This document shows, piece after piece, positions 10,369 through 44,261 of a stretch of DNA of 64,000 nt (position 1 is the stretch's first letter; the number at the start of each line of letters is the position of its first letter). The stretch covers positions 672,001 through 736,000 of the forward strand of contig CAWBCJ010000029.1 in NCBI GenBank assembly GCA_963787255.1. Reading direction: 5' to 3'. The notes beneath the pieces are model-generated. The model saw only the letters and a program-made list of their open reading frames with translations. It ran no database searches and had not been told where the DNA came from. A program made the translations under genes and the position numbers. Origin of the DNA: Methanobacteriota archaeon. Lineage in GTDB: Archaea; Methanobacteriota; Methanobacteria; Methanobacteriales; Methanobacteriaceae.

Positions 10369-10460
10369 TAATTTAAATAAATCTAAATCATAAATATGGT
10401 TATGGCTGAATAGATTTAACTATTATAATTATGTAATAGGTATTCAAAGGTGTAAAAAAA

Positions 10461-19269: not shown

Positions 19270-19365
19270 GATTTCACATTATTTAAGATTTATTTTAAAT
19301 TTATTAGTATAATGAACTTATCTTGAAAGGAAACATTTATACTTTATGTATCAAAAAGAATTTAT

Positions 19366-19393
19366 ATAACTATCGTTATATAACAATTGTAAT
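19366..19393. promoter_or_regulatory. Two abutting copies of 14-bp palindromic operator (ATAACTATCGTTAT, ATAACAATTGTAAT) overlapping the TATA box of the GMC gene
   Basis: Read directly; TTTATATA at 19361-19368 overlaps the first copy. Confidence 0.75.
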
Positions 19394-19418
19394 AAAATTT
19401 TTTTAATTAATTTATAGA

Positions 19419-20756: not shown

Positions 20757-20770
20757 AAAAACGTTTATAT

Positions 20771-21808: not shown

Positions 21809-21918
21809 TATTTCAAAATATGAGATAATGTGTTCATTTAGGAAATTGGTTTTAATATATATACTTAAAGGGTCAAGTATTATAAGATCAAATTTTCGAG
21901 GAATTATTTTAATTTAAT

Positions 21919-22542
21919 ATGCGAGGTACAAACGAGATGAAAACCCTTAAAATAGGTGAAAATACCTTTGAACTTGCAGAAATCATTATTAATGACTTAA
22001 AAGCATCAGAAAATATTGGAATTCTTAAATGCATCCAGTGCGGTATGTGCACATCAGTCTGTCCCGCAGCAAGACATACAGACTATGACTCACGAGAACT
22101 GGTTAAAAGAGTTCTAGATAAAGACGAAAGTTTAATTTCAGACCCCATAATTTGGGATTGTTTTTACTGCTACACCTGCCACAGCGTATGCCCTGTAAAT
22201 AATAGCCCATGCGAAATAAACCAAATAATAAGACAGAAAGCTATTGATAATGGAAACGGAAAATCCAAAATAGCCCCTTTTTCGGCATACGGCGATAGTT
22301 TCCTTGAATTTGGACTTGGAGCAATTCCAAACGATTTCTTCGACGACTTGTTAAAAGATTATGGAAAGGAATGGCTTGAATTAAAGATTAATTTGGAGGA
22401 TATCCGGGAAGAATTAGGTCTTGGCCCGATATTACTGCCAGAAAAGGATGTAAATGATATTAACAAAATTTTGGAGAAAACAGGATTCACTAAAAGACTG
22501 GATAGAATAAGGCGGTGTAAAGATGAAGAAAATACCAGATAA
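21919..22542 (+). CDS. hdrC: Heterodisulfide reductase subunit C-like 2x[4Fe-4S] protein
   Basis: KCIQCGMCTSVCP and WDCFYCYTCHSVCP; overlaps the hdrB start. Confidence 0.85.
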   Translation: MRGTNEMKTLKIGENTFELAEIIINDLKASENIGILKCIQCGMCTSVCPAARHTDYDSRELVKRVLDKDESLISDPIIWDCFYCYTCHSVCPVNNSPCEINQIIRQKAIDNGNGKSKIAPFSAYGDSFLEFGLGAIPNDFFDDLLKDYGKEWLELKINLEDIREELGLGPILLPEKDVNDINKILEKTGFTKRLDRIRRCKDEENTR

Positions 22543-23470
22543 GGAAATTTTACTCTTTAAAAGCTGCCTTGTAAATGTTGAATATCCGGGAGTAGAATCA
22601 TCAACCAAATTTCTATTCGATAAACTGGGAATAGAATACATTACAAGTGAAAGACAGTCCTGCTGCACTGGTTTAGGACATTACGCGGATTTATTTGACC
22701 AATTTTCAACAACTACACTTTCAGCAAGAAACTTTGGAATTGCAAGAGAAGAAGAACACAAAAATATAGCCACACTATGTGCTACCTGTTATGCAATACT
22801 AAAAAAATCAGCCAATATTTTAAATAAAAAAGAAGATGTTAGAAAAAAGGTAAATACGATTTTCGACGATACAGAAATTCCTAATTTGAAATATAATGCA
22901 GATGATATGGATTCAAGAGATAATATTTTCCATGTAGCTGAAATTCTTTATAATAAGGCCGAAGAAATTGAAAATCTTGTAGAAATAGATTTATCAGGCT
23001 TTAAAGTGGCTGCACATCACGCCTGCCATTATTGTAAAGTTCATCATAATGATACTATTGGAAATGTGAGAAATCCAATGGTTATAGAAACCCTTGCTAA
23101 AGCATGCGGTGTGGAAACAGTGGACTGGTATGATCGCAAAACAAATACCTGTGGTAACGGCTTCAGGCAGCGTTACATGAATAAAGATTTATCATTTTCC
23201 ATAACAGCAGAAAAGCTGCTTAGTTTAAAGGAGAATGAAGTTGATATTTTACTTCACATGTGTCCAAATTGTCAGCTGCAATTTGACAGAAACCAGAAAG
23301 TCATTGGAGAATCAATGGATACTGAATTCAATATTATGTGCCTTAACATTTCTCAATTTATAGCTCTTGCTCTTGGAGCCGACCCTTACAAAGTTGTAGG
23401 GATTCAGACACACTCAGTTCCTATAGAACCTATTTTAAAGAAAATAAAGCAGATTAACCTATGTTTATGA
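22523..23470 (+). CDS. hdrB: Heterodisulfide reductase subunit B-like protein (divergent CCG domains)
   Basis: SCLV, SCCTG, LCATC, HHACHYC, NTCGNG, MCPNCQLQFD. Confidence 0.85.
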   Translation: MKKIPDKEILLFKSCLVNVEYPGVESSTKFLFDKLGIEYITSERQSCCTGLGHYADLFDQFSTTTLSARNFGIAREEEHKNIATLCATCYAILKKSANILNKKEDVRKKVNTIFDDTEIPNLKYNADDMDSRDNIFHVAEILYNKAEEIENLVEIDLSGFKVAAHHACHYCKVHHNDTIGNVRNPMVIETLAKACGVETVDWYDRKTNTCGNGFRQRYMNKDLSFSITAEKLLSLKENEVDILLHMCPNCQLQFDRNQKVIGESMDTEFNIMCLNISQFIALALGADPYKVVGIQTHSVPIEPILKKIKQINLCL

Positions 23471-23479
23471 GGTAAGACA

Positions 23480-25855
23480 TTGAATAACTATAATTTTTCA
23501 AGATATGCACCAAAAAGCAGTATAGATATTGGTGTTTTTTTATGCCGTTGTGGAGGAAATATTTCCGATACAGTTGACATTGAAAGGCTTAAGTCTTCAA
23601 TAGACGCTAAAGTAGTGAAGGATTTCGAAAATCTCTGCTCAATCAAGTGCCAGAAGAATATCAGGGATATTATACTGGAAGAAGATTTAGACCGGGCAGT
23701 AATTGCAGCATGTTCACCGATTACTCACGAAAAAACCTTTAGAAACCATGTAGCTCCTCTAAATCCATATCTTTTAGAAATGGCCAATATAAGAGAACAG
23801 TGTTCATGGGTGCATTCTGATGTGGATAAGGCAACGGAAAAGGCAATATCACTTACGGGTGCTGCCATTGAACGGGTTAAATACGCCAGACCACTGGACA
23901 CAATAGTTCGAAAAACCAAAAAAAGCGTCGCTGTAATAGGTGGTGGAATATCTGGAATAACTACCGCGCTTTCAATGGCAAAACAGGGCATTAAAGTATA
24001 CATAATTGAAGAAAAGCCTACAGTCGGTGGAAATATGATAAAAATAGGCAAAGTATTCTCTCCAGAAAAACTTGCAGAAGAATGTGCGCTGTGTCTTTTC
24101 AATCCACTGATAAATGAGGCAGTACAGCATAAAAATATTGAAATGATCACCAATGCAGAGCTTAAATCATCCGAAAGGAAAGCTGGAAACTTTAACTTGA
24201 TTGTCGAAAGAAAACCAAGTTTTGTTAAGGAAGATAGATGTACAGCATGCGGTAACTGTGCGGAAGTCTGTCCAGTGGATGTTCCAAATGAATGGAACGA
24301 AAAATTGATGCTGAGAAAGGCTATTTACAAACCGTTCCCGCAGTCAGTTCCTGACGTATACACAATTGATGAAGAACACTGTATTAAGTGTGGAAAATGC
24401 CAGAAAGTCTGTACAATGGATGCTATTAATCTTTCGATGAAAGGGGAAATTATGCCTCTTAACGTTGGTTCTGTGGTTATAGCCACTGGCCATAAAGGAT
24501 TTAACCTTACAAAACGTCCTGAATATGGATATGCAAGATATGATGATGTAATAACTCAAATGGAGCTTGCGAGGATAATGGGGGTTAATGGACCGACAAA
24601 TGGTAAATTACTCCAACCTTCAACTGGTAAAATTCCAAGAAGAGTGGTTATGGTTCAATGCGCAGGTTCCAGGGACGAAAAGCCTGAAGGAAAACGATAC
24701 TGTTCAAAAGTTTGCTGCATGGTGGCTTTAAAGCATGCAAACTTTATCAAACGTTACTATCCAGATACAGAAGTTATAATCTGTTATACGGATATGAGAA
24801 CCCCGGGAATGTATGAAAATTATTTTAGACATGCACAATCAAAGGAGATTAAACTAATAAGGGGAAGACCTGGAGAAATAGCTAAGAAAGGGGAAAATCT
24901 CGTTGTCAGAGTTGAAGATACTTTGAAAGGGGAACAATTGGAAATAGAAACTGACATGGTTGTTTTATCTGAGGCAATGGAGCCTTCAGAGGGAACATTA
25001 AAAGTAGCAGAAACATTGAATGTCGGTCTTACCGAAGATCTCTTCGTAAAAGAGAAACATCCAAAGATAAAGCCAGTTAGCACAGATATAGAGGGAATCT
25101 ATGTTTGTGGAACTGCACAGGGTCCAAAAGATATTACTGATAGCGTTTCCCAGGCAAACGCAGCGGCATCTAAGGTTTCAGAAATTATGAATGGGGGATT
25201 AGAGATAGAACCGACCATAGCAGTTATTGACCCTTCCAACTGTCAAATCTGTGGGGACTGTGTAACAGCATGTAAATATAAAGCTATTTACATGCAAGAT
25301 GAGCGTATATCAGTTGATGCTATTGCCTGTACTGGCTGTGGAATATGTATGTCCAAATGTAAGCATGAAGCAGTTGAAATTATGGGCCAAACAGATAGTC
25401 AACTGTATGCAATGATTTCTGGTATGTTGAAGGGCAAAAAAGATGGTGAAAGGAGAATACTGGCATTTGTAGATTATATAGGCTACGTAGCATCTGATAA
25501 CATAGGAATAAACAGGATATCCTATCCACAATCAGTTAGAATCATTAGAATTTCATCAATTAACCGTTTAATGCCGAAACATATTATATATGCATTTGAA
25601 AACGGCGCAGATGGAATATTTTTGGGTGAATATCCTGATGATATAATGTATCCGAGTATTCAAGAAAAAGTGCAACAATTCCGCTCTGCACTTATAAAAA
25701 ATAGTATAGATCCAGATAGATTGATGTATTACAAGGTTTACGCACCGTACTTTAGAGGATTGGCCAATAAATTCTATGAATTTGATAAACAGGTTAGTAA
25801 TGCCCTTGATAAGCTTGAAGCGGTGTTATACAAAGCTTCTTCTAAAGATTTATAA
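23480..25855 (+). CDS. hdrA: Heterodisulfide reductase subunit A-like flavoprotein fused to a Cys-less MvhD-like domain
   Basis: GVFLCRCGGNI, ACSP, NIREQCSWVH, IGGGISG, inserted 2x[4Fe-4S] domain, QCAGSRD...YCSKVCC, QGPKDI, C-terminal ferredoxin, then RILAFVDYIG...VRIIRISSINR...GADGIFLGE. Confidence 0.88.
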   Translation: MNNYNFSRYAPKSSIDIGVFLCRCGGNISDTVDIERLKSSIDAKVVKDFENLCSIKCQKNIRDIILEEDLDRAVIAACSPITHEKTFRNHVAPLNPYLLEMANIREQCSWVHSDVDKATEKAISLTGAAIERVKYARPLDTIVRKTKKSVAVIGGGISGITTALSMAKQGIKVYIIEEKPTVGGNMIKIGKVFSPEKLAEECALCLFNPLINEAVQHKNIEMITNAELKSSERKAGNFNLIVERKPSFVKEDRCTACGNCAEVCPVDVPNEWNEKLMLRKAIYKPFPQSVPDVYTIDEEHCIKCGKCQKVCTMDAINLSMKGEIMPLNVGSVVIATGHKGFNLTKRPEYGYARYDDVITQMELARIMGVNGPTNGKLLQPSTGKIPRRVVMVQCAGSRDEKPEGKRYCSKVCCMVALKHANFIKRYYPDTEVIICYTDMRTPGMYENYFRHAQSKEIKLIRGRPGEIAKKGENLVVRVEDTLKGEQLEIETDMVVLSEAMEPSEGTLKVAETLNVGLTEDLFVKEKHPKIKPVSTDIEGIYVCGTAQGPKDITDSVSQANAAASKVSEIMNGGLEIEPTIAVIDPSNCQICGDCVTACKYKAIYMQDERISVDAIACTGCGICMSKCKHEAVEIMGQTDSQLYAMISGMLKGKKDGERRILAFVDYIGYVASDNIGINRISYPQSVRIIRISSINRLMPKHIIYAFENGADGIFLGEYPDDIMYPSIQEKVQQFRSALIKNSIDPDRLMYYKVYAPYFRGLANKFYEFDKQVSNALDKLEAVLYKASSKDL

Positions 25856-25887: not shown

Positions 25888-26506
25888 CTACGATTTTTCA
25901 TGGATTGGAAGTGTAAAATAAAAAGTCGAACCCTTAACCAACTCTGATTCCACCCAAACACGACCACCATGGCGATCAATAATTCTTTTTACAATTGAAA
26001 GTCCAATTCCAGTTCCTTGATATTCTTCATTTGTGTGGAGCCTTTGGAATATGGTGAAAATTTGATCTTGATATGGGGAATTTATTCCAATTCCATTATC
26101 TTCTTGATCCTCTGCTAAAGCTTGAAAGAATAAATCAATGGGTCTTCTAAAACCATGAGGTTCTGAAGGTTTAATAAGGCCTAATACACCATTTACAATT
26201 CCTATGTCATTATTTGGGGGGATGACATACACTTTATTTGGTTTAACTGGCATGATTATCTTGAATTTCAAGTACTTCCATATCAGTATATCTTGCAATT
26301 AATTCTGCCATAGTGCTTTTATGTGTGGGATCTTAGATGTTGAATCAAAACAAATCCCATACCTGTATCTACTGAGGCATATTACTAAATAATTTCTCTA
26401 AAGCTTCCAGCCCACCTGCAGATGAACCAATACCTACTATGGGAAATTTGCCTTTTTCTTTGGAATTGACTTTTGATTTATTTAGAGTTTTATTCTGATT
26501 TTCCAC
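25888..26506 (-). pseudogene. Remnant of a CheB/CheR-type sensor histidine kinase: CheB N-terminus joined to a HATPase C-terminus by internal deletion
   Basis: FPIVGIGSSAGGLEAL...IQHL.PTHKS...VYVIPPN...[15 protein letters not shown] directly followed by EDNGIGI...FQRLH...[13 protein letters not shown]...GSTFYFTLP; also frameshifted. Confidence 0.8.
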
Positions 26507-27173: not shown

Positions 27174-28116
27174 TTATATTGGATAATAATGGGTCGGCTC
27201 AGGGTGAACTTTTTTAATAAATTGTGTATTAAAAATATTTTCTTCTTTTAAATTTCCCTGCATGTAACCCAATTCATTTAATATAGGGATAAATTTGAGT
27301 GTAGATTCAATATACTCTTTTGAAATGCTTGCACAGTATTTTGGAGACACATTATACGTTTTAAGCACAAAATCTTTACTAACTACTCCAACTTCTTTTA
27401 AAACAATCTCTGCTGCTTTTTCAGGCTGTGTTCTTATTAAATTGGAAGCATCTTCGTGGGCTTTAAGGAAATCTATTATAAATTCTGGTGATTCATTGAT
27501 TAATTCTTCTTTTACAACTATTCCATAGCTTGGATTGTATGGCCAGAGTTTATTTGGAGGAATTACAACTTTAGAATCAAATCTGTTTGAAATAACTGTT
27601 GCAAGGGAAGGTGTTCCAACACCAGCAGCAATTTTACCCTCATCTATTGCATCGGGGATAAAATCTGCCCAATGGAAAATTTTCTAATGTTTATATTAAA
27701 ATCTTTGGTAATTTCATGTATAATTACATCGTGAATGCACCCTTTAGTTGGAGTTCCAATAGTCTTACCTTCAAACTGCTTTAAAACAGCTTCTAAACTT
27801 CCCAATTCCTCAAAAGATTTATAGAATTTGGGAGCAACCATTACAGTGCCTTCTACATGCCCTCCTCCGATGCATTTAATTTTTAAGCCATTTTCAATTC
27901 CTATCATAACTGGAGGAAGACCTATATAACCCACATCAATGTTTTCAGATTTGAATGCTTCTATCATTGCAGGTCCTGTTGCAAATAAAGACCATTTTAA
28001 ATCGTAATCATTTAAATATTTGGTAAATTACTATTTTTTAAGATAAATGATGTGTGATATATTGTTGAAAGGTAACCTATACGGATTTTAATTCCTCCTT
28101 TTTCTTTACATTTCAT
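27174..28116 (-). CDS. SsuA/TauA/NMT1-like solute-binding-fold protein without signal peptide; two apparent frameshifts
   Basis: IRIGYLSTIYHTSF...FATGPAMIEAF...DVGYIGLPPVMIG...GGHVEGT...GCIHD...WPYNPSYGIVV...FLKAHEDA...SPKYCASI. Confidence 0.75.
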
Positions 28117-28119
28117 AAA

Positions 28120-28133
28120 TTAACAATTGTTAT
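28120..28133. promoter_or_regulatory. Palindromic operator TTAACAATTGTTAT immediately upstream of the solute-binding-fold gene
   Basis: Read directly; 4 nt from start codon at 28116. Confidence 0.7.
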
Positions 28134-28164
28134 ATTTCAATAAAATAAAAAAAAAAAGGTATTT

Positions 28165-28440
28165 CTAGCCACCAGCTATAGTCTGGAAGATTACAATTTC
28201 ATCATCATCTTTCACTTCGCTTTCAAGGCCTCCTCCAGATTGTGCATCTTCTCCATTAACGAGAATTTTCATATAATCTCTTAATTCACCATTTTTATCA
28301 AATAAAGCATCTTTAAATTCATTTCCATACTTTTCAGTTAAAATATCAATTAAATCTGCAATATTTCCATTGTGATCAATATTTACAGATCTTTCTCCTG
28401 TGATATCTCTAAAACGTGCTAAAAACTTAATTTCTACCAT
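28165..28440 (-). CDS. MoaD/CysO/SAMP-like ubiquitin-fold sulfur carrier
   Basis: 91 aa, VEIKFLARFRDITG...ILVNG...C-terminal IAGG. Confidence 0.9.
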   Translation of the reverse strand: MVEIKFLARFRDITGERSVNIDHNGNIADLIDILTEKYGNEFKDALFDKNGELRDYMKILVNGEDAQSGGGLESEVKDDDEIVIFQTIAGG

Positions 28441-28553
28441 AATATGTCTCCTGATACGTTTAAATTTAAAAATATTTATTAATATGATTTATTTTATATT
28501 TAAATCAATATTGGTCTATTTATAATCTAACTTTTAAGGTTAACTTTTGCTCT

Positions 28554-28567
28554 ATAACTATTGTTAT
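28554..28567. promoter_or_regulatory. Palindromic operator ATAACTATTGTTAT between the divergent sulfur-carrier and hydrolase genes
   Basis: Read directly. Confidence 0.7.
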
Positions 28568-28719
28568 AATCCAGGTTATAAATTTTACTCATGAACATAG
28601 ATTCTATTGTTAGTGCTCCTGATTTTTTTGATACTGGATAAGCAAAAATTAAGATCATTATTTTAGCATGAGTAAAGTTATTACAAACAAAATATAACTT
28701 ATTAATATAAAGAACTGTA

Positions 28720-29697
28720 ATGGATGTGAAAAATATGACCCGTAAGATGGAATTGGAAAATGAAGTGTTGATACACGAGGACAAGGTCATTCGTCGTGAA
28801 ATAAGTTTTCCCAGCCAAAATGTACAGCTTAAAGGCTGGATTTATTTACCTGCAGATAGGGCGAGAAAGAAAAGCCCAGGGATAGTAACAGCCAACGCTT
28901 TAACGGCGGTCAAAGAGATTACATTACCGGGCTATGCCGAACGCTTTGCAGCAGCGGGTTTCGTAACTCTGGTATTTGACTACAGATTTTGGGGTGAAAG
29001 CGAAGGAGAACCCCGCAACCAGATAATACCCTACGAAATGCAGCAAGACCTGAAGAATGCCATCACATGGCTCGCTGAACAGCCAGAAGTTGATGCAGAT
29101 CGCATAGGAGGATGGGGTGTCTCTTTGGGTGGTGCACACATGCTTTATCTATCTGCATTCGAACGCCGGCTCAAAGCTGTAGTGGCCACGGCCACATCGG
29201 TTAATGGTATTGATACTTCAGAAATGATGATGGGAAAAGAAGCCATGCAGCAAATGATGCTCCAGCTGGCTCAGGATCGGGTGATGAGATATAAAACCGG
29301 CGCGCCTGCCACCTATAAAACTGCCTGGGGAAAATTTGGCGAAGATGTTCTATTCCCGGTGGAAGAGGCTCTGGATTTCTACATGAATGCTAAAAACACC
29401 ATAGCCCCAAACTTTGAAAATCGCGTCACTGTTCAGTCCATGGAGAATTTGAACGAATACAACCCAGACTTTGCCATCCACATGGCATCGCCTACTGCGG
29501 TACTTATTGTGCATGCTGAGCACGATGTTATACCTGTAGAGTTGGTACGTGATGTGTATGAGCGTGCCGAGGAGCCCAAGAAACTTGTGGTGAAAGACTG
29601 TAAACACACGGACCTTTATGATAAGGAGCCATGGATTACAGAATCATCAGATGAAGCTATTGGATGGTTTAGAAAATATTTAGTGAGTGTACCATGA
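28720..29697 (+). CDS. Alpha/beta hydrolase (YcjY/peptidase S15-like), visibly GC-richer than flanks
   Basis: FDYRFWGESEGEPR, DRIGGWGVSLGG nucleophile elbow, HAEHD, HTDLYD. Confidence 0.85.
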   Translation: MDVKNMTRKMELENEVLIHEDKVIRREISFPSQNVQLKGWIYLPADRARKKSPGIVTANALTAVKEITLPGYAERFAAAGFVTLVFDYRFWGESEGEPRNQIIPYEMQQDLKNAITWLAEQPEVDADRIGGWGVSLGGAHMLYLSAFERRLKAVVATATSVNGIDTSEMMMGKEAMQQMMLQLAQDRVMRYKTGAPATYKTAWGKFGEDVLFPVEEALDFYMNAKNTIAPNFENRVTVQSMENLNEYNPDFAIHMASPTAVLIVHAEHDVIPVELVRDVYERAEEPKKLVVKDCKHTDLYDKEPWITESSDEAIGWFRKYLVSVP

Positions 29698-30733: not shown

Positions 30734-30761
30734 TGGAACTAAAATTTTTTAATCACATAAT

Positions 30762-30882
30762 ATAACGATCGTTAATTTTATATATGATGTTCTTTACTAA
30801 ATGAATATAACTATAGTTATATTATGGCATCCTCAGCCAATAAAATGTATAATCTGTAACAATGTTATATAACTATAGTTAT
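30762..30882. promoter_or_regulatory. Cluster of operators upstream of cysK: 30762-30775 ATAACGATCGTTAA, 30807-30820 ATAACTATAGTTAT, 30869-30882 ATAACTATAGTTAT (plus 13-bp GTAACAATGTTAT at 30856)
   Basis: Read directly. Confidence 0.8.
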
Positions 30883-30937
30883 ATATTACATAAAAAACAA
30901 TAGAAAAAATAGATATAGTATTACAATGGTGAGAAAT

Positions 30938-31926
30938 ATGGTAAAAATACCAGAATTAAAAAGAGGAATAGCAAATAATGTAACAGAACTGATAGGAAAT
31001 ACTCCTCTTGTAAGGTTAAACAGAATTACCGAAGGGACAGACGCAGAGGTTGTAGCAAAGCTTGAATCATTCAACCCTTTAAGCAGCGTAAAAGACAGAA
31101 TAGGAGTTGCAATGATAGAATACGGGGAAGAACAGGGACTTATTAATAAAGATTCAGTTCTTAGTAGAACCTACAAGTGGAAATACCGGTATTGCACTTG
31201 CATTTGTTGCAGCAGCTAAAGGATACAAACTTATTCTTACAATGCCCGATACAATGTCCATAGAAAGAAGAAAGTTGCTTGCACTTCTCGGTGCCGAAAT
31301 TGTATTAACTCCTGGTGCAAATGGAATGAAAGGGGCTGTAGCCAAAGGCAGAAGAACTATCCGAAAGTATACCTAATGCAGTAATGCCTCAACAGTTTAA
31401 AAACCCTGCAAACCCAAAAATCCACAGGGAAACAACTGCACATGAAATATTAAGAGATACAGATGGTAAAGTAGATATATTAGTTGCAGGTGTAGGTACT
31501 GGTGGAACAATAACAGGTATTGCAGAAGTTTTAAAAGAAAAAAACCCTGATTTTAAGGCAGTAGCAGTCGAACCAATATCCTCTCCAGTATTATCTGGAG
31601 GAAAACCCGGACCGCATAAAATTCAGGGAATAGGGGCAGGATTTGTTCCTGATATTCTTAGAACGGATTTAATAGATGAAATCATTCAAGTAAAGGACGA
31701 AGACGCTGCAAGTACATTATTAAGACTTGCAAGAGAAGAAGGAATACTTGCAGGTATATCATCAGGGGCTGCAACATGGGCTGCCATTGAACTTGCAAAA
31801 AGAGAAGAAAATGAAGGTAAAAGGATAGTAGTAATTCTACCAGATACAGGAGAAAGATACTTAAGTATGGACTGGGTATTTGAAGAAGTTTTCCATACCT
31901 ACAATCAAAAGGATTTCTCCAACTAA
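30938..31926 (+). CDS. cysK: Cysteine synthase A (O-acetylserine sulfhydrylase), two apparent frameshifts
   Basis: [23 protein letters not shown], (EPTSGNTG in shifted frame), [37 protein letters not shown]. Confidence 0.9.
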
Positions 31927-31994
31927 GGTCATAGAATATCCATTTATTTCTATTTTTATTTTTCAACGAAAATTCCTGAAATGGAGGCGTGCAA

Positions 31995-32710
31995 ATGTTT
32001 GAACGAGTAAAAGAAGACATAGAAATGGTAATGTTAAGAGATCCGGCTGCAAGAAGCAAGTTAGAAATATTTTTTACATATCCTGGACTTCACGCCATAT
32101 GGCTTTATAAAATAGCTAACTGGTTATGGATTCGCAATCATCATTTTTACCGGTGGCTTAATTTCGGCTATTACTCGCTTTTTTACAGGAATAGAGATAC
32201 ATCCTGGAGCAAAAATAGGAAGAAGAGTATTCATCGACCACGGAATGGGTGTCGTAATTGGAGAAACTGCAGAAGTTGGAGATGATGTTTTAATTTATCA
32301 GGGTGTTGTTCTGGGTGGAACAAGCCTTGGAAAGGAAAAAAAGGCACCCTACCATTGGAAGTGGGGTTGTAATAGGTTCTGGAGCTAAAGTTATTGGTAA
32401 TATTGAAATAGGAGACTGCTCGAAGATAGGAGCAGGTTCTGTAGTCTTAAAATCAGCTCCAATGGGGTCTACAGTTGTTGGAATTCCTGGACGAAATGTA
32501 AAAGAAGAGCGTAAATGCGCTATAGATCTGGATCATGGAGAGTTACCAGATCCTGTTGCAGAAGTGATTAAACTTATTTTAGACCGCCAAGATGAAATGG
32601 AAAGCCAGATAAGAGCATTAGGAATATCAACATCTACCATAAAAATGAATGAACTTTTTGAGAGAAAATCAGAAATTGAAGAAATATTCTCAGAAGGTGC
32701 AGGCATATAA
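31995..32710 (+). CDS. cysE: Serine O-acetyltransferase, apparent frameshifts
   Basis: [36 protein letters not shown] (shifted frame), [22 protein letters not shown]; C-terminus FSEGAGI. Confidence 0.9.
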
Positions 32711-32848
32711 TATCATTTTTTTATTTTATTAGTAATTATATTAGCCTTAAAATTACATTTTAAGTTCATAAATTAGCTTTAAAACATAAATAAACAGTAA
32801 TAAACTAAAATTTAATAAAATAATGTAAGCAAAAAAATATAAGTTAAT

Positions 32849-32862
32849 ATAACACTAGTTAT
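32849..32862. promoter_or_regulatory. Palindromic operator ATAACACTAGTTAT upstream of the HTH regulator (autoregulation candidate)
   Basis: Read directly. Confidence 0.7.
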
Positions 32863-32966
32863 ATTAATTCAATTTAAAGAGTTTATTTAAATTTTACAAA
32901 TTCAGTTTAAAAGAGGGAAATAATCAATTGATAACATTTAAATTTCCAAATTATAATTAAACGGGC

Positions 32967-33404
32967 GTGATAGAAGTGAGACCACCATGTGAAATAGTTG
33001 TATGGTACGTAATTCCAAGTATACGGTCTGAATTGGCTAAAGAATTACTTAATTTAGGTATGAAACAAAAACAAATTTCTGAACTGCTGGATATTACTCA
33101 ACCTGCAGTATCACAGTATATAAGTGATAAAAGGGGACACGGAATTAAATTTGATGAAAATACTCAAAACATGATCAAAACTTTTGCAAGAGATTTAATG
33201 GAACAAAATCTGGAACAAGGGAGATGTAATACGCGAATATGTGAGATATGCAAGCACGTTAAAGCAGAAGAGGTTGTATGTCAACTGCATAAAGAAAAAG
33301 ATAACATTCCTGCAGGTTGTAATGCATGTATGGGATCAAAAAGGAATATAGATACCTGGATTACTGTATCTAATGGGTTCTTTTCTATTTATCCTCTAAA
33401 TTGA
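32967..33404 (+). CDS. XRE-like HTH transcriptional regulator (COG2522 / ThiR-N-terminal-like) with Cys-rich C-terminus
   Basis: RPPCEIVVWYVIPSIRSELAKEL...GMKQKQISELLDITQPAVSQYISDKRG; CEIC, CQLH, CNAC. Confidence 0.85.
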   Translation: MIEVRPPCEIVVWYVIPSIRSELAKELLNLGMKQKQISELLDITQPAVSQYISDKRGHGIKFDENTQNMIKTFARDLMEQNLEQGRCNTRICEICKHVKAEEVVCQLHKEKDNIPAGCNACMGSKRNIDTWITVSNGFFSIYPLN

Positions 33405-34768
33405 TGCCTAATATCTCTTAATCTGCTTCTTATTTCATCTGCAAGCTCATAATTCTTATTTTCACGGAGCTTTTCCCTTACATCAACCAGAATATTGACT
33501 AATTCATCATTGCGAATCTCCTTTGCAGGATTCAACTGAAAAATTAAGTCCCAAAATATCTCCGAATTCATTAAGTAATTCTTTTATTTCTTTAAATACA
33601 TTTTTAGAGATATTTTCTTCACTTATTCCTTTATTTATTTCTCTTATGAAATTAAAAAGTGCTGAAAGTGCAATAGGTGTATTAAAATCATTATCCATTG
33701 CATCCAAGAATTCATTTTTGGTATTTTCCAGCATTTTAAGGTATTCATTATTAGAATCACTATTTTTAGTTATATCCATTTCAAGGAATTCATCAACAGT
33801 TTCCATTAATTTATAAATTCTTTTCAAGCTATTCTGTGACTGCTGTAGAGCTTCATCGCTGAAGTCAATTGGACTTCTGTAATGAGTGGAAAGAACAAAA
33901 AATCTAAAGACCTGCGGGTCATATTCAGTGAGTAATTCTTCAATTGTAATAAAATTTCCAAGTGATTTGGACATTTTCTCCCCGCTGACATTTAAAAAGC
34001 CCGTATGCATCCAGTATTTAACCATTGGCTTTTTACCTGTTGCAGATTCCATCTGCGCGATTTCTGCCTCATGATGCGGGAAAATAAGATCTAATCCTCC
34101 ACCGTGAATGTCAAATTGGCCTCCAAAATAGGTTTCAGATATTGCAGTGTCTTCAATGTGCCATCCCGGTCTTCCATCGTCCCCATGGAGAAGCCCATGA
34201 TGGTTTGTCATCTCTCTTTTTCCAGAGTGCAAAATCTCCAGGATTTCTTTTTGTAGTATCTGGATTAACTCGATGAACATTTAGGTCTTCAATATTTCTA
34301 TTTGAGAGCTTTCCAAAGTCTTCAAAACGAGATTCATCAAAATAAATGCCAGTTGGAGGTTTCATAGGCAAAACTTTTCTTTATCAATGTTTGAATTTGA
34401 TTAATAATTTCGTTAAGGTGTTCCAGTGCCCTTGCATAATAATTAACGTTAGTTACACCTAATAATTCCATATCATGGAAATAGAGTTCTTCAAATTCCT
34501 TAGCAAGTTTTAATGGTTCAACACCAAGTTCATTTGCTCTTTTAATGATTTTATCGTCAATATCAGTGATATTTTGTAAATAAAAAATGCTGTACCCTTT
34601 ATATTTTAGATATCTTGCAATAATATCAAAAGCAATATAGGTTCTTCCATGACCAATATGTGATTTATCGTAAACTGTTGGCCCACATACAAACATTTTT
34701 ATTCTGTTTTCGTTTATAGGCGTGAATTCTTCCTTTTTACGGGTCATTGTATTGTATACTTTTATCAT
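33385..34768 (-). CDS. cysS: Cysteinyl-tRNA synthetase (class I), several apparent frameshifts
   Basis: VCGPTVYD..HIGH, NITDIDDK, DFALWK, GRPGWHIE, DIHGGGLDLIFPHHEAE, KMSKSLGN, DNDFNTP, ADEIRSRL. Confidence 0.92.
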
Positions 34769-35029: not shown

Positions 35030-35066
35030 TTTGATCAATCCTTTTTTTCAAGGAAAAAAGGTTGAG
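35030..35066. repeat. Short palindromic element TTGATCAATCCTTTTTTTC-AAG-GAAAAAAGGTTG abutting the tRNA-Cys 3' end (terminator or repeat element)
   Basis: Inverted repeat read directly; shares a TGATCAA-CCTTT...AAAGGTTG core with the element at 38405-38430. Confidence 0.5.
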
Positions 35067-35137
35067 GGCCGAGATTGGGATTTGAACCCAAGTATCATGG
35101 TTTGCAGCCATGCACCTCGCCTCTCGGTCATCTCGGC
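35067..35137 (-). tRNA. tRNA-Cys(GCA), 71 nt, no intron, CCA not encoded
   Basis: GCCGAGA TG ACCG AGAGGCG AGGT G CATGG CT GCA AA CCATG ATAC TTGGG TTCAAAT CCCAA TCTCGGC C folds into a full cloverleaf. Confidence 0.95.
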
Positions 35138-35166
35138 AAATATATTTAATTGCGTTAGTTACTAAG

Positions 35167-35180
35167 TTAACAATTGTTAT
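35167..35180. promoter_or_regulatory. Palindromic operator TTAACAATTGTTAT overlapping the TATA box of the tRNA-Cys promoter
   Basis: Minus strand reads TTTATATAACAATTGTTAA, 30 nt upstream of the mature tRNA 5' end. Confidence 0.75.
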
Positions 35181-35334
35181 ATAAATACTTTGCTCCACTT
35201 GATCATTATTGTGTAACTTATCATAGATTTATTTTTAGATAATACTGTATTTACAAGAATGTTAGATAAAAACGGTTTTTAATTGTAGAAACATCACTCG
35301 TAAACTTTAAATAAGAAGAAAGTAGTTAAATATT

Positions 35335-35348
35335 ATAACAATTGTTAT
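35335..35348. promoter_or_regulatory. Perfect palindromic operator ATAACAATTGTTAT upstream of metY
   Basis: Read directly; follows TTAAATAT. Confidence 0.75.
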
Positions 35349-35502
35349 AAAAAATATGTTTATAAATTTTCATAGATTCAAACTTGAAATACTTATTTAC
35401 ATCTTCAAATACAAAATTGGGCAGTATAGAGCGATTTTAGGCTTCATTTAGAATCTATAGGTTATAGAATGCCAATAAAAACAAATTTATTGGAGGAATT
35501 AA

Positions 35503-36810
35503 ATGACAGAAGAAAAAAAGAAAGAATATGGATTAAGCACACTTGGATTACACGTAGGACAGGAAGAAGCATGCCCTGCAACAGGAGCAAGGGCAGTACC
35601 TATCTACCAAACATCATCATATGTTTTCAATGATGCAGAACATGCGGCAAATCTTTTTGCCTTAAAAGAATTTGGGAATATTTACACCCGTATAATGAAC
35701 CCTACAAATGATGTTTTTGAAAAAAGAATAGCTGCAGTTGAGGGAGGAAATGGAGCTTTAGCAGTGGCTTCTGGTCAAGCTGCAAACACCTATGCATTGT
35801 TAAACCTCAGTTTACCCGGTGATGAAATAGTTTCTGCAAATAACCTTTATGGTGGAACATATCAATTATTTAATTACACTTTTCCAGAATTAGGGCGAAA
35901 AGTGAATTTTGTAGAATCAACTGATCTTAAGGCAATTAAAAATGCAATTACAGACAAAACAAAAGCAATTTTCGCTGAATCAATAGGTAACCCTAAGTTA
36001 GATATACCTGATTACAAAGGAATAGCAGAAATTGCTCATAATGCAGGAATTCCTTTTGTAGTTGATAATACAACAGGAGTAGGGCTTGTAAAACCTATAG
36101 AACACGGAGCAGATATAACAACACTTTCTGCAACAAAATTCATTGGAGGACATGGTACATCCATTGGCGGGGTAATTGTTGATTCTGGAAACTTTAATTG
36201 GGGTAATGGTAATTTCCCTATTTTAACTGACCCTGATCCAAGTTATCATGGCCTAAAATTCTGGGAAACATTCGGAGATTTCCCGGGACTTGGAAATGTT
36301 GCTTACATAATGAGAGCAAGAGTAAGGCTCCTTCGTGACATGGGGGCAGCTTTAAGTCCTTTCAATGGGTTCCTATTTTTACAGGGACTTGAAACACTGG
36401 ATTTAAGAGTTAAGAAACATTCAGAAAATGCATTTGAAGTTGCAAAATTCTTAAAAGATCACCCTTCAGTAAATTGGGTAACTTATCCCGGATTTGAAGA
36501 TGATCCGGCCCATGAACTAGCTTCTAAATATTTAAACGGAGGATACGGGGCTTTAATAGGATTTGGTATCAGAGGCGGACTTGAAGCCGGTAAAAAGTTC
36601 ATTGAAAATACTGAACTCTTATCCCATCTTGCAAACATTGGAGATGCAAAGAGTCTGGTTATTCACCCTGCTTCAACAACGCATCAACAGTTAACTCCCG
36701 AGCAACAGGCAGAAACAGGAGTTACAGAAGACTTTGTAAGGCTTTCCATTGGTCTTGAAAACGTTGAAGATATAATTGCAGATATAGATCAGGCATTATC
36801 TAAAATATAA
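35503..36810 (+). CDS. metY: O-acetylhomoserine aminocarboxypropyltransferase (sulfhydrylase)
   Basis: [33 protein letters not shown] (PLP Lys), [21 protein letters not shown]. Confidence 0.93.
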
Positions 36811-36866
36811 CTGAAAAATTTTGATAGTCCAAAAATCTAATAATAAAACTGGACATATCCAATATT

Positions 36867-38351
36867 ATGGGATTTAGAAAAATGAAAAAGGAATCAGTTG
36901 GACTCGCTAAAACGCAGTACTATAATCTTTCTGAGGATTTAACACTGGAAGGTGGAGGTAAGCTTAAAGAAGCTACAATAGCCTATGAAACCTACGGTAA
37001 ATTAAATAAGGAAAAAAGTAATGCGATTTTAATCTGTCATGCGCTTTCGGGAGATGCTCACGTTGCTGGATGGCACGATGGAGACCGAAAACCCGGCTGG
37101 TGGGACAGTATAATCGGTCCCGGAAAATGTCTGGATACAGATAAGTATTTTATAATCTGTTCCAATGTTATTGGGGGCTGTAAAGGTTCTACTGGCCCTT
37201 CTTCAACTAATCCTGAAACTAATGAACCATATGGGCTTGATTTTCCAATTATAACCATTTCGGACATGGTTGATGCCCAAAAGAAGTTAATTGATCACCT
37301 TTCTATAAAACAGCTCTTTGCAATTGTGGGCGGATCAATGGGAGGAATGCAGGTACTTCAATGGTGCGTTTCTTATCCAGATATGGTAAAATTAGCTATT
37401 CCTATAGCTACGGCAGCTAATTCTGCCCCACAACAAATTGCTTTTAATGAAGTAGGTAGAAGGGCAATTATATCTGATCCAAAATGGAATGGTGGTTCTT
37501 ATTACTCTGGAGAAGTTCCTAAGGAGGGATTAGGCCTTGCCAGGATGATAGGGCATATTACATACCTTAGTTATGAGTCAATGTACCAGAAGTTCGGTAG
37601 AAGACTTCAGGATAAGGAAAAATACAGTTTTGACTTTTCACTTGATTTTCAGGTGGAAAGCTATCTCCACTATCAGGGAGAATCCTTTGTTAAAAGATTC
37701 GATGCTAATTCATATCTCTACATAACAAAAGCAATAGATTATTTCGACCTTACAAAGAATGGGTCTCTTTCTGAAGGATTTGAAGATGTAGGGGCAAAAT
37801 TCCTGGTTATTTCAGTGGATTCTGACTGGCTTTACCCTCCAGCACAATCAAAAGAGATTGTAATGGCATTAACAGCAAATAACATAGATGTAAGCTATCA
37901 TGAGCTTAAATCTCCCTACGGGCATGATGCGTTCCTTCTAGAAGAGGGCCAATTAAATTACATTGTAAGTGGATTTCTCTCAGATATTCTCGTAGGGGAC
38001 GTAATGGCAACCGAAGTAACTAAAATCGGTGAAGAATCAAGTATGGATGAAGCAGCAAGGCTTATGCTTGAAAATAAAGTCACTCATTTACCTGTAGTTT
38101 CAGATGGTGATAAATTAATAGGAATTGTGACTGCATGGGATATTTCAAAGGCTGTTGCCTTAAAATGCAGTAAATTAGACGAAATAATGACGAAAGGAGT
38201 CATAGTGTCTAAACCTGACGACCAAATAGAAAAAGCAGCAGAGAAGATGAAAAAATACAATATTTCCTCCCTTCCTGTTGTGGATGATAATCAAAAAGTT
38301 ATTGGAATTATAACAACTGATCACATAAGCACGCTAATAACACGAGACTAA
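36867..38351 (+). CDS. metX: Homoserine O-acetyltransferase fused to a C-terminal CBS pair
   Basis: [38 protein letters not shown]; CBS domains HLPVV...GIVT and SLPVVD...GIIT. Confidence 0.92.
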
Positions 38352-38395
38352 TGGAAAAAACTTATCATAATTAATGTTCATATTAAAATTAAGAA

Positions 38396-38454
38396 TTTAT
38401 GAGGATGCAACCTTTGGAAAGGTTGATCATTCATAAAGATTGATCATCCATAAA
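38396..38454. repeat. Inverted repeat (CAACCTTT-GG-AAAGGTTG within a longer imperfect hairpin) plus 15-bp direct repeat TTGATCATYCATAAA between metX and iscS
   Basis: Read directly: core 38408-38425; direct repeats at 38423-38437 and 38440-38454. Confidence 0.55.
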
Positions 38455-38506
38455 ATTCGTTTATATATTAATTTACAGTAAAAAAAATAATTTATGAGGT
38501 GAAATA

Positions 38507-39679
38507 ATGATTTATATGGATCATTCAGCTACATCACCAGTTGATCCTAAAGTTTTTGAAGCAATGAAGCCTTATTTTGTGGAAGAATTTGGAAATGCTT
38601 CTACATTATACTCTCTTGGAAGAGATGCAAGAAAAGCAATGGAAAATGCAAGAGCACAGGTTGCTTCACTTATAGGAGCAAAAACTGAAGAAATTATTTT
38701 TACAAGTGGTGGAACAGAATCTGATAACATCGCCATTAAAGGTACAGCTTACAGATTAAAAGATAAAGGAAATCATATAGTAACAAGTGCTATAGAGCAC
38801 CCTGCAGTTGAAGAAACGTGTATATATTTAGAGAAAAATGGTTTTGAGGTCACATATCTTCCTGTTTACGAAGAAGGGATTGTTAGGGTATCTGATTTAG
38901 AAGATGCAATAACTGATAAAACTATTTTAATCACAATCATGCATGCAAACAACGAAATTGGTACAATCCAGCCAATAGCAGAAATTGGTAAAATAGCAAG
39001 GGAAAAAAAGATTTATTTCCACACAGATGCAGTACAGACTGTTGGAAAAATACCGGTAGTTGTTGAAGAATTAAATGTGGACATGCTTTCACTTTCAGCA
39101 CATAAAGTTTATGGCCCAAAGGGAATAGGTGCACTTTACGTTAAAAAAGGAGTTAGATTAGAGCCTATTGTCCACGGCGGTGGCCATGAAAAGGGTTTAA
39201 GGCCTGGAACAGAAAATGTATCAGGAATTGTTGGTCTAGGTAAAGCATGTGAAATTGCAGAAAAAAACCTCACCGATAATGCGAAATATATAACAAATTT
39301 GAGGAACAAATTAATAAAAGGAGTACTGGATTCGGTAGAACAATCTTATCTAAATGGACATCCCACAATGAGACTACCTAATAATGTAAACTTCAGATTT
39401 ACAGGTATCGAAGGTGAATCGCTGGTATTACACCTTGATTCTAAAGGAATAGCAGGTTCAACTGGTTCTGCATGTTCTTCAAAGAAATTAGAGCCATCAC
39501 ACGTTTTAACAGCAATTGGTCTGAAGGAAGTTGACGCTCATGGATCACTGCGTCTAACACTTGGAAAAGACAACACTGAAGAAGATGTTGAACATGCGAT
39601 AAAATCAATTCAAGAAGTGGTTGAAACCCTTAGAAAACTCTCTCCTCTCTGGTGTGCGGTGCCAGATACAAAAACATGA
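38507..39679 (+). CDS. iscS: Cysteine desulfurase (IscS/NifS type)
   Basis: IYMDHSAT, FTSGGTESDN, HTDAVQ, SAHKVYGPKG, GSACSS. Confidence 0.93.
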   Translation: MIYMDHSATSPVDPKVFEAMKPYFVEEFGNASTLYSLGRDARKAMENARAQVASLIGAKTEEIIFTSGGTESDNIAIKGTAYRLKDKGNHIVTSAIEHPAVEETCIYLEKNGFEVTYLPVYEEGIVRVSDLEDAITDKTILITIMHANNEIGTIQPIAEIGKIAREKKIYFHTDAVQTVGKIPVVVEELNVDMLSLSAHKVYGPKGIGALYVKKGVRLEPIVHGGGHEKGLRPGTENVSGIVGLGKACEIAEKNLTDNAKYITNLRNKLIKGVLDSVEQSYLNGHPTMRLPNNVNFRFTGIEGESLVLHLDSKGIAGSTGSACSSKKLEPSHVLTAIGLKEVDAHGSLRLTLGKDNTEEDVEHAIKSIQEVVETLRKLSPLWCAVPDTKT

Positions 39680-39716
39680 AAATAAAGTTAATTTATGTGT
39701 ATTAGAGGTTGATTAT

Positions 39717-40127
39717 ATGTATAGTGATAAAGTAATGGAACATTTTCAAAACCCCCGGAATGTTGGCGAAATAGAAGATGCAGACGGTGTTGGAACAGTA
39801 GGAAACCCAACATGTGGAGATCTGATGACGATCTACATTAAAGTAAAAGACGACGTAATTGAAGATATTAAATTTAAAACCTTCGGCTGCGGCGCAGCCA
39901 TTGCAACAAGCAGTATGGTAACTGAAATGGCAATGGGAAAAACAGTAGATGAAGCCTTAAAAATCACAAGAAACGATGTCGCAGATAAACTGGAAGGGCT
40001 TCCACCAGTTAAAATGCACTGTTCTAACCTTGCAGCCGATGCATTACATGCTGCAATTGATAATTACAGGGGAAATAAAGGGGAAAAGACAGAAAAGCAT
40101 ATCTGTACAACGTGCGAAGAAGAATAA
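39717..40127 (+). CDS. iscU: Fe-S scaffold IscU/NifU-N (minimal two-gene Fe-S system)
   Basis: MYSDKVMEHFQNPRNVG, GNPTCGD, FGCGAAIA, LPPVKMHCSNLA; RBS GAGGT. Confidence 0.93.
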   Translation: MYSDKVMEHFQNPRNVGEIEDADGVGTVGNPTCGDLMTIYIKVKDDVIEDIKFKTFGCGAAIATSSMVTEMAMGKTVDEALKITRNDVADKLEGLPPVKMHCSNLAADALHAAIDNYRGNKGEKTEKHICTTCEEE

Positions 40128-40646: not shown

Positions 40647-41462
40647 TTATTTAGCTATTGCAGCTTCGCTGGTTTTAACTTTGCTGTTTTTAAGTTTCTC
40701 TATAATTAATTCAGCAACCTTTTCACCAGAAAGAAGCATTCCTCCGAAGGTAGGGCCCATTCTTGGCTGGCCGTAGGCGGTTGCAACTGACATTCCAGTC
40801 ACATAGAGTCCGGGGAAGATTTCTTTTGTATGTTCAACGATGGCATCTTCTGATTTTTCAACCCACATTCCGCCGAATCCTTTGATATCTACAAGCCCAC
40901 GCTCTTCTAAAGATTTTACAACAACTGCATCATGACCAGTTGCATCAATTACAATTTTTGACTCGATTGCAACGGGATCTACACATGTTATGGCTCTTGG
41001 AAGTGCAGATACTGGTGTCCAGTTCATAACAATACCATTTACGTGTTCATCTCTTAAAACGACGTCGTCGAATTTTGTCATATTAATTACTTTCGCACCT
41101 GCGTCCAGTGCGCTTGCTATGAGTTTTGAACATGCGTGAGGTCCGTCTGTGACATATAATCCGTCTTTTACTTTTTTGTATGGTACACCAATTTCGTCTA
41201 ATATCTTTTGACCTGGTTCTCTTACAGTTAGTTTGTTCATGAGGTAACCGCCTATCCAGAAACCTCCGCCTAGATAATTGTTGCTTTCTATAAGGAGTGT
41301 TTTTACGCCTGCTTCGCCGAGTTTTTTTGCAGCTACAAGTCCGCTGGGGCCTGCTCCAACGATAATTACGTCACTTTCTATATATTCTATAAATTCGTTT
41401 GCAAATCCTTCAACAATGGCTTTTGTCACATCTTTTTCTGATATCTTTGAAAAAATTTTCAT
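40647..41462 (-). CDS. thi4: Thi4 thiazole synthase, Cys-type (TCVDP)
   Basis: [45 protein letters not shown]. Confidence 0.92.
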
Positions 41463-41483
41463 AGTTAATCCTCGTCAATTTAC

Positions 41484-41511
41484 TTAACAATAGTTATATA
41501 ACAATTGTTAC
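41484..41511. promoter_or_regulatory. Two abutting operators (TTAACAATAGTTAT, ATAACAATTGTTAC) directly downstream of the thi4 TATA box
   Basis: Minus strand TTTATAAGTAACAATTGTTATATAACTATTGTTAA. Confidence 0.78.
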
Positions 41512-41591
41512 TTATAAATTTTATGAATGTTCCCTAAAAAACAAAAATAGATTATAAATAATAAAAAAAAGGTAAAAAGAGAAATTAGAGC

Positions 41592-44110: not shown

Positions 44111-44200
44111 ATTTTCCTCCTTATTCTATAAACATTAAGATTCAACTTTTAAAAAATTCGTATTTAACTCCTGTGGATTTTAAAAAAGCAACATGTTATA

Positions 44201-44228
44201 TTAACAATTGTTATATAACTATTGTTAT
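44201..44228. promoter_or_regulatory. Two abutting operators (TTAACAATTGTTAT, ATAACTATTGTTAT), with a degenerate third at 44188-44199, upstream of the cystathionine lyase/synthase
   Basis: Read directly. Confidence 0.8.
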
Positions 44229-44261
44229 ATGTTTTTCGGTTTTTAAACTCTAAATTAAATT

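Follow-up and report, generated by a model that had tools for sequence, protein, structure and literature searches.

Within a 64,000-nucleotide stretch of a Methanobacteriaceae genome (hereafter the window), a small helix-turn-helix (HTH) protein with a cysteine-rich C-terminal part is encoded between cysE and cysS, in a region whose sulfur genes are preceded by copies of a short palindrome. This locus raises the question of whether the protein is the regulator that reads the palindrome and, if so, whether it represses and to which signal it responds. An earlier note on this DNA had proposed a stand-alone, ThiR-like repressor that senses sulfur through its cysteines. Our own reading is based on homology, synteny, operator distribution and operator position. 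Taken together, we consider it slightly better than an even bet that the protein is the repressor of a cysteine and sulfur regulon of Methanobacteriaceae, with docking to CysK as its input in the window's clade. The pairing of regulator and operator, together with repression, is the firmest part of this proposal and appears highly probable from the comparative data.

The open reading frame (ORF) at 32967–33404, as given by the sequence and the ORF list, reads RPPCEIVVWY, then ITQPAVSQYISDKRG, followed by CEIC, CQLH and CNAC. The PPCE and ITQPAVSQY elements of the HTH region and the three downstream Cys/His pairs were thus found where they had been described, and the position between cysE (31989–32710) and cysS, which lies on the other strand, was borne out. 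Since relatives begin with MRPPCE, the true start is probably the GTG at 32976 and not position 32967. The mechanically read frame stays open only thanks to two mutually compensating indels. Compared with the related loci L003 and L008, the window carries one extra base near 33216–33220 and lacks one near 33234–33235; the shifted frame at 33220–33234 reads GDVIR, and the closest relative has GDVIRR where the mechanical translation gives GRCNTR. The suspicion that GRCNTR reflects a compensated frameshift, and that its extra cysteine is an artefact, was therefore justified. A third indel hides the natural C-terminus. The frame at 33353–33373 reads YLDYCI and a stop, in agreement with the DYCI end of the relatives, so the last 16 residues of the mechanical translation (TWITVSNGFFSIYPLN) are probably not real protein.

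Three indels inside 400 nt of one gene could mean that the gene is a pseudogene in the source organism, with the indels real and the regulon deregulated. However, cysK (30926–31926), cysE, cysS and hemA (glutamyl-tRNA reductase, 17253–17606 / 17729–18454) are likewise split by indels of one or two bases, and several of the window's indels fall within short runs of a single base, as where GG has become GGG or CC has become C. Because these genes are split alike, partly at homopolymers, sequencing or assembly errors in an error-prone assembly are the simpler reading than gene decay; the simultaneous loss of all these genes would also be unlikely in a methanogen. We consequently regard the pseudogene explanation as unlikely.

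Profile searches placed the regulator in a large archaeal family. The HTH_3 family (PF01381) was matched only marginally, with 23.1 bits for the window ORF and 23.6 for P0001 against a gathering cut-off of 23, and an NCBIfam scan of the regulator matched no family. The ThiN domain (PF10120) was not found at an expectation value (E) of 1 or below, the protein ending about 10 residues after its last CxxC, in keeping with the earlier claim that ThiN is absent. At E ≤ 0.001 there were 680 relatives, typically of 126–132 residues, and the named ones were Methanobacterium or Methanobacteriaceae proteins annotated as 'transcriptional regulator'. A profile search of a library clustered at 50% identity returned 1766 representatives at E ≤ 0.001 and 820 at 1e-10, mostly of 115–135 residues and matched over their full length. 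Similar clusters occur across Archaea in the ESM Atlas, most commonly in Thermoproteota, Methanobacteriota, Bathyarchaeota and Nitrososphaerota. The longer hits were informative: P0211 (323 residues, ThiN PF10120 at 143–312) matches profile positions 1–118 with E 3.3e-21, and all six of the longer hits carry PF10120. An HTH module with a C-terminal ThiN domain is the architecture of ThiR. The ThiN-fused proteins match the entire module (E ~1e-21), and the description of the regulator as ThiR-like can stand. They form one clade nested among the stand-alone forms in a weakly resolved tree.

Structure prediction gave an all-helical model (mean predicted local distance difference test score, pLDDT, 87.8; predicted template modelling score, pTM, 0.81) with a disordered tail at residues 123–131 (pLDDT <50). 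A Foldseek search of this model against the PDB gave no match at E ≤ 0.001. PDB sequence searches, whether started from the protein or from the family profile, gave only generic HTH hits that left the Cys-rich part unmatched; on the HTH stretch, the profile hit a lambda-repressor-like protein (E 8.6e-07). These results suggest that the DNA-binding module of ThiR is a widespread stand-alone archaeal family (the 1766 representatives above) with a built-in Cys/His centre for which no solved structure was found. Two unusual members were seen as well. P0248 (506 residues), a distant member without the three-Cys set described below, is fused to a class-V aminotransferase of the NifS/cysteine desulfurase type, a hint that ties the module to sulfur and iron–sulfur (Fe–S) metabolism. 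In P0136 (226 residues) the module occurs twice within a single polypeptide, which would be a natural single-chain 'dimer'; the C-terminal CxxH/CxxC part is missing.

We then turned to the palindrome. As the earlier note had stated, the regulator has its own operator copy at 32849: ATAACACTAGTTAT occupies 32849–32862, with two mismatches to the earlier consensus and an exact TAAC-N4-GTTA core. This core occurs 14 times in the window, compared with a mean of 1.20 and a maximum of 5 in 100 dinucleotide shuffles. A weight matrix built from the related loci and applied at a threshold of 12 bits also found 14 sites in the window, all of them intergenic, against 0–4 in 20 shuffles. The extended consensus covers 18 bp and reads wATA-TAAC-aATt-GTTA-TATw, and the commonest spacing between neighbouring operators is 14 nt (40 pairs in the related loci). 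One core match, at 34444 inside cysS, was set aside as a chance occurrence, being intragenic and below 12 bits in the matrix scan.

To place these sites in context, genomes were scanned with the regulator, which yielded 79 loci from Methanobacterium, other Methanobacteriaceae and Methanobrevibacter, and about 20 kb around each orthologue was analysed. The gene directly 5' of the regulator on the same strand is cysE in at least 71 of the 79 loci, and the order is cysK-cysE-regulator. The distance between cysE and the regulator in Methanobrevibacter ranges from −9 to +11 nt; because the genes overlap or nearly touch there, the three look like one operon. The loci contain 375 exact cores in 1.26 Mb. 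This density, about 6 in every 20 kb, compares with roughly 0.4 predicted by the window shuffles. Of the 64 loci that include the region 5' of cysK, 61 have an exact core no more than 250 nt from the gene, and 53 have at least two. The motif also distinguishes genes by their place in an operon: it precedes the operon-head genes for O-acetylhomoserine sulfhydrylase (21/23 loci), ThiS/SAMP (30/31) and Thi4 (6/7), whereas it is nearly lacking before the operon-internal genes for MetX (0/13), NifS (1/25), ThiI (0/6), HdrA-like proteins (0/7) and MOSC proteins (0/6). The regulator gene has an operator of its own in 13 of the 79 loci, all of them within L001–L014 and in the window's clade. In L065 and L066, two tblastn matches to the regulator (at about 9655 and 9992) were seen some 340 nt apart and 3' of cysE; they may represent either a tandem duplication or one gene that is split.

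Could the palindrome nevertheless be bound by a factor encoded elsewhere, with the regulator lying beside cysE for another reason, such as a different, small regulon? The lack of an own operator in 66 of 79 loci would fit such a view, as would the fact that our view is confined to some 20 kb around each orthologue. However, the motif heads the operon that contains the regulator gene in 61 of 64 loci, and orthologues as distant as those of Methanobacterium and Methanobrevibacter (58–63% protein identity) share the linkage to cysK-cysE. Neither the recognition helix (TQPAVSQY) nor the core of the palindrome differs between these genera, and no second HTH family was detected among the 67 window ORFs scanned. 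On this evidence a separate factor is improbable. The regulator is the best candidate for the cognate regulator of the palindrome, the role that the earlier note had assigned to it, and comparative genomics makes what is a standard and well-supported case for this assignment.

Whether the regulator represses or activates can be judged from the position of the operators relative to promoters. For tRNA-Cys, the promoters of the window and 13 other loci were compared. In 12 of these 14 the start of the operator falls within AAAGTATTTATATA or immediately behind it; of the remaining two, one has AAAGTATTTATATA with one mismatch and one is without it. AAAGTATTTATATA is a textbook example of the B recognition element (BRE) and TATA box of methanogens. 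The cysK promoter shows a comparable arrangement in seven loci (L002, L009, L011, L013, L016, L018 and L064), where AAAGTTTATA(A/T)A is followed by two operators 8–14 nt further on. An operator that abuts the TATA box or lies between it and the gene is in the usual position for a repressor in archaea. Since the operators stand beside or just 3' of TATA boxes, we read this as repressor geometry, in which binding should block the use of the promoter, and the repressor role proposed in the earlier note fits the tRNA-Cys promoters and the cysK promoters of these seven loci. For the same reason, it seems very unlikely that the protein binds the palindromes and activates transcription. Such a role would find some room in the window's clade, where the operators lie about 55, 110 and 150 nt before the ATG of cysK with no obvious TATA box 5' of the proximal one; wherever a canonical BRE/TATA is recognizable (in the same 12 of 14 and seven loci), however, the operators abut the TATA box or lie on its gene side. 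Because the TATA box of the tRNA-Cys promoter abuts an operator in the window's clade, tRNA-Cys and its synthetase appear to be within the regulon there. The tRNA-Cys(GCA) gene is directly 5' of cysS wherever a locus holds cysS, and was present in 25 of the 55 loci scanned. The arrangement was noted in the window and in loci L001–L015.

A repressor needs a signal, and the cysteines had been proposed to supply it. An alignment of 16 Methanobacteriaceae sequences shows C5, C89, C92, C102, H105, C115 and C118 without exception. To follow them through the family, we counted cysteines by alignment in the 114 representatives with residues in all seven columns. Positions 102, 115 and 118 are Cys together in 106 of the 114, and position 105 is His in 96. 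The triad formed by C5 and the C89/C92 pair behaves differently: all three are present in 55 representatives and absent together in 59, with no mixed cases. We interpret these counts as pointing to two centres: one of three Cys and one His, present in nearly the whole family, and one of three Cys that is optional. The representative P0182 has lost the triad independently (Y, T and V in its place) and kept the other four residues. The all-or-none pattern of the triad was at first taken as strong covariation and was then downgraded, as it corresponds to about two events on the tree, P0182 being the second.

The same seven residues, and the HTH, are also invariant in an alignment of seven out of seven ThiN-fused relatives. 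The proposal of the earlier note that the cysteines are a sulfur-sensing tail is not upheld by these counts: because the ThiN-fused relatives keep both centres, the Cys set is not an addition to the module made for sensing sulfur. C102, H105, C115 and C118, which recur almost throughout the family, are most likely a built-in structural zinc site of the DNA-binding module, as judged with the predicted model. The main competing explanation is that the cysteines hold an Fe–S cluster or another metal, or are persulfidated or oxidized, and that this centre is the sensor, as in IscR, SufR, NsrR and SurR. Operator binding would then be a property of the holo or reduced form and would end when the centre is lost or modified, a scheme that is compatible with CysK docking. 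Three-Cys sites are typical of Rrf2 Fe–S sensors, and the invariance of the seven residues in Methanobacteriaceae, the behaviour of the triad as a unit apart from the other four residues, its independent loss in P0182 and a regulon that contains nifS-nifU and sulfide-using enzymes would all suit a sensor. Most orthologues, moreover, carry no other visible sensor, having no extra domain and, in 59 of 76, no Ile tail. On the other side, the ThiN-fused regulators have the same residues along with a ligand domain of their own, so that the centre both predates and outlives a sulfur-specific role; the triad pattern requires only two changes on the family tree and not 114 independent events; the C-x2-H and C-x2-C motifs, in a helix–knuckle arrangement suggested by the secondary structure of the model, resemble structural zinc; and PDB searches gave no sequence or fold match to known Fe–S regulators. 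Weighing both sides, we hold a cysteine-based sensor to be rather unlikely.

The restored DYCI end, which the earlier note had overlooked, suggests an input other than cysteine sensing, namely docking to CysK. All 19 clade members end in DYCI, which follows a variable linker. The CysE proteins of the same loci end in EGAGI (57 rows), and their CysK proteins retain the peptide-binding TSGNT loop and Q152. The terminal Ile of CysE provides about 80% of the energy of CysK binding, and CdiA (GYGI), EGL-9 and CymR have similar Ile-ended motifs, according to PMC12895370. The same paper states that the CysE–CysK complex is dissociated by O-acetylserine and stabilized by sulfide. A further indication comes from L016, where the reading frame of the regulator (10001–10600, 199 residues) continues into the final ~72 residues of CysE, so that the protein ends in GAGI; P0065 (198 residues, a cluster of 13 sequences, 95% identical to the L016 protein) has the same CysE-tail fusion. 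L016 also encodes a second, plain copy of the regulator at 11398–11790 with an operator upstream (11206). When CysK, pyridoxal phosphate and the regulator were modelled together, the predicted complex scored 0.44, compared with 0.01 for the best of three controls; the runs agree in at least 63% of the contacts, the pLDDT of the partner is at least 65, no interface was reported, and the result lends the interaction weak support.

Several observations weigh against parts of the proposed reading. Our census of C-termini, which covered 76 intact orthologues after exclusion of L016 (fusion), L047 (running off its contig) and L061 (truncated), found DYCI in only 15, and two more end in Ile (TDCI and TEPI). 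The same operators occur in lineages without the Ile tail, including Methanobrevibacter, whose CysE also lacks the Ile end. Because most orthologues lack the Ile end and yet keep the operators, CysK docking can be at most a clade-specific layer and not the general input of the family. The L016 fusion lies in an apparent tandem duplication of the segment comprising the cysE 3' end and the regulator, and could be an accident of it. In the calibration of the complex score, 58 of 80 solved complexes passed the mark, as did 2 of 110 mismatched pairs, and scores at or below 0.60 comprised only 7 of those 80 complexes together with both passing mismatches; by this calibration a score as weak as ours will mostly be wrong unless the pairing was already likely on other grounds, and it may reflect likeness to solved CysK–peptide complexes. 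Three of the 64 cysK upstream regions (L027, L058 and L060) are without the exact motif, which adds to the absence of the own operator from 66 of the 79 loci mentioned above. Should the three indels be real, the regulator of the window may be non-functional, and every link drawn here between protein and DNA is one of guilt by association. With these points counted, we put the CysK-docking step in the window's clade at somewhat under an even chance.

The mechanism that we propose can be summarized as follows. The protein would correspond to just the DNA-binding module that archaeal ThiR regulators carry before ThiN, made up of an XRE-like HTH and, behind it, a helical region rich in Cys and His, and would bind the 18-bp palindrome wATA-TAAC-N4-GTTA-TATw as a dimer, as the symmetry of the site implies. 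Its sites, often paired 14 nt apart and placed against or just 3' of the TATA box, would prevent use of the promoter. Putative targets in the window are cysK-cysE, the regulator gene itself, tRNA-Cys-cysS, homocysteine synthase-metX-nifS-nifU, the SAMP/MoaD-like carrier, the MoeB/ThiF–HdrA-like operon, thi4 and the gene of the cystathionine gamma-synthase family. The DYCI tail would dock onto CysK, which would act as co-repressor, and O-acetylserine, a sign of sulfur shortage, would release CysK, following the logic of CymR–CysK in Bacillus. The most far-reaching form of this proposal is that a ThiR-type module without ThiN gained a CysE-like Ile tail at least twice (DYCI, and the CysE C-terminus in L016/P0065), thereby recruiting CysK as an O-acetylserine- and sulfide-sensing co-repressor that gates cysteine, homocysteine and Fe–S synthesis as well as tRNA-Cys-cysS, an archaeal counterpart of CymR–CysK made from unrelated parts. 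We put this forward tentatively, as possible but short of probable.

The positions of the features are collected below.

Coordinates in the window of the regulator gene, its putative operators and the sulfur genes beside them
Feature	Position	Strand	Remarks
Regulator ORF, mechanical reading	32967..33404	+	145 residues; first 3 and last 16 residues probably not real
Regulator gene inferred from relatives	32976..33373	+	131 residues in relatives, MRPPCE...DYCI; three small indels in the window
Compensated frameshift pair	33216..33235	+	a surplus base followed by a missing one; GRCNTR in place of GDVIRR
Third indel	33352..33357	+	beyond it the homologous frame ends DYCI and stop (33371-33373)
Conserved C-terminal DYCI and stop, shifted frame	33359..33373	+	candidate CysK-docking tail
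Regulator's own operator ATATAACACTAGTTATAT	32847..32864		directly 3' of TATA-like AAAAAAATATAAG
Three operators 5' of cysK	30760-30777, 30805-30822, 30867-30884		motif and matrix scans
cysK-cysE	30938..32710	+	cysK start probably 30938; 1-base insertions near 31158 and 31342-31347
cysE, two pieces	31989-32285, 32303-32710	+	Hexapep match; product ends ...EGAGI
cysS (cysteinyl-tRNA synthetase), in pieces	33507..34768	-	tRNA-synt_1e match
tRNA-Cys (GCA)	35066..35137	-	immediately 5' of cysS, same strand
Operator at tRNA-Cys promoter	35165..35182		abuts BRE/TATA AAAGTATTTATATA
Operator 5' of homocysteine synthase-MetX-NifS-NifU operon (35503-40127)	35333..35350		
Tandem operators 5' of GMC-oxidoreductase/MoeB-ThiF E1/Fer4/CCG/HdrA-like operon	19364..19395		14-nt register
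Operator 5' of ORF 27644-27967	28118..28135		motif in 9/14 loci
Operator between SAMP1/MoaD-like gene (28165-28440, -) and hydrolase gene (28720-29697, +)	28552..28569		
Tandem operators 5' of sulfide-dependent thiazole synthase Thi4 (40647-41462, -)	41482..41513		
Tandem operators 5' of cystathionine gamma-synthase/lyase family gene (42977-44110, -)	44199..44230		

Some of the neighbouring genes deserve comment. The operon at 19419–25855 (+) encodes a GMC-type flavoprotein, a MoeB/ThiF-type E1 protein, a ferredoxin-like protein, a CCG-domain protein and a large HdrA/FlpD-like protein, and is a candidate sulfur-activation or sulfur-trafficking system. The ORF at 27644–27967 (−) is small and conserved, and gave only a weak SsuA-like match of 26 bits, far under the cut-off. 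Another ORF, at 25888–26298 (−, 136 residues), combines the HATPase_c end of a histidine kinase with a weak CheB-methylesterase match and is probably a fragment.

No sulfur or cysteine regulator of methanogens was found described in the full-text literature searched, subscription literature being outside its scope, and the available parts of PMC13474568 and of a preprint on random-barcode transposon sequencing (RB-TnSeq) in M. maripaludis contain nothing on this regulator. COG2522, the family named in the earlier note, appeared in one unrelated paper, and PMC8305020 does not contain the word ThiR. If our reading is true, a candidate regulator can be named together with a defined 18-bp operator and a coherent regulon, which comprises cysteine and homocysteine synthesis, NifS/NifU, sulfur carriers of the SAMP/E1 type, thiazole synthase, and tRNA-Cys with its synthetase. 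Orthologues are present in cultured strains (for example Methanobacterium oryzae DSM 11106, locus L003) and in rumen and gut Methanobrevibacter. If a CysE tail has indeed been reused to link a transcription factor with CysK, this would repeat a bacterial trick by convergence.

Four known systems invite comparison. The closest in sequence is ThiR, the archaeal thiamine regulator reportedly described by Rodionov et al. (2017, J Bacteriol 199:e00743-16). Its ThiN-fused proteins share the whole N-terminal module with the regulator described here (the TQPAVS-Y HTH, C5, CxxC, CxxH and CxxC; E ~1e-21), ThiR is likewise said to use palindromic operators, and thi4 is among the putative targets in this study (tandem operators in the window, motif in 6/7 loci). 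Unlike ThiR, the present regulator is without the ThiN ligand domain, so its effector cannot be sensed by ThiN, and its putative regulon consists mainly of cysteine and homocysteine synthesis, Fe–S assembly, sulfur carriers and tRNA-Cys/cysS; thiC and thiamine transporters were not seen in the regions covered. The DNA binding of ThiR is said to be relieved by thiamine phosphates, for which the regulator, lacking ThiN, shows no apparent site. A second comparison is with IscR, SufR and NsrR, which are Fe–S regulators, and with SurR of Pyrococcus, which uses a CxxC redox switch. The present regulator resembles them as a small, probable HTH repressor with few conserved cysteines (a three-Cys set plus CxxC) and with desulfurase and scaffold genes in its putative regulon, but sequence and fold searches revealed no homology, and its Cys set is shared with the ThiN-fused relatives, which argues for a structural role.

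The proposed logic is closest to that of CymR–CysK. In Bacillus subtilis, CymR represses cysteine metabolism, its DNA binding is stabilized by CysK, and O-acetylserine is the releasing signal (Tanous et al. 2008, as cited in PMC12895370). That paper also counts CymR as one of the proteins other than CysE that pair with CysK homologues and have a C-terminal Ile-containing motif. Our regulator similarly has Ile as its last residue, and its gene neighbours cysK. The two differ in that CymR is an Rrf2 winged-helix protein and the regulator an XRE-like, ThiR-type module whose interaction with CysK is a prediction; no Rrf2 family was among its 14 Pfam hits at E ≤ 1, and no Rrf2 structure appeared in the PDB sequence and fold searches. 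Finally, the tail itself can be set beside those of CysE and CdiA-CT, with which it shares a flexible, Ile-ended C-terminal peptide and an aromatic residue two positions ahead of that Ile (DYCI compared with GYGI). It differs from them in that its host protein is a transcription factor, its penultimate residue is Cys and its binding is predicted, and in the related lineage of L016 and P0065 an actual CysE tail is fused to the regulator.

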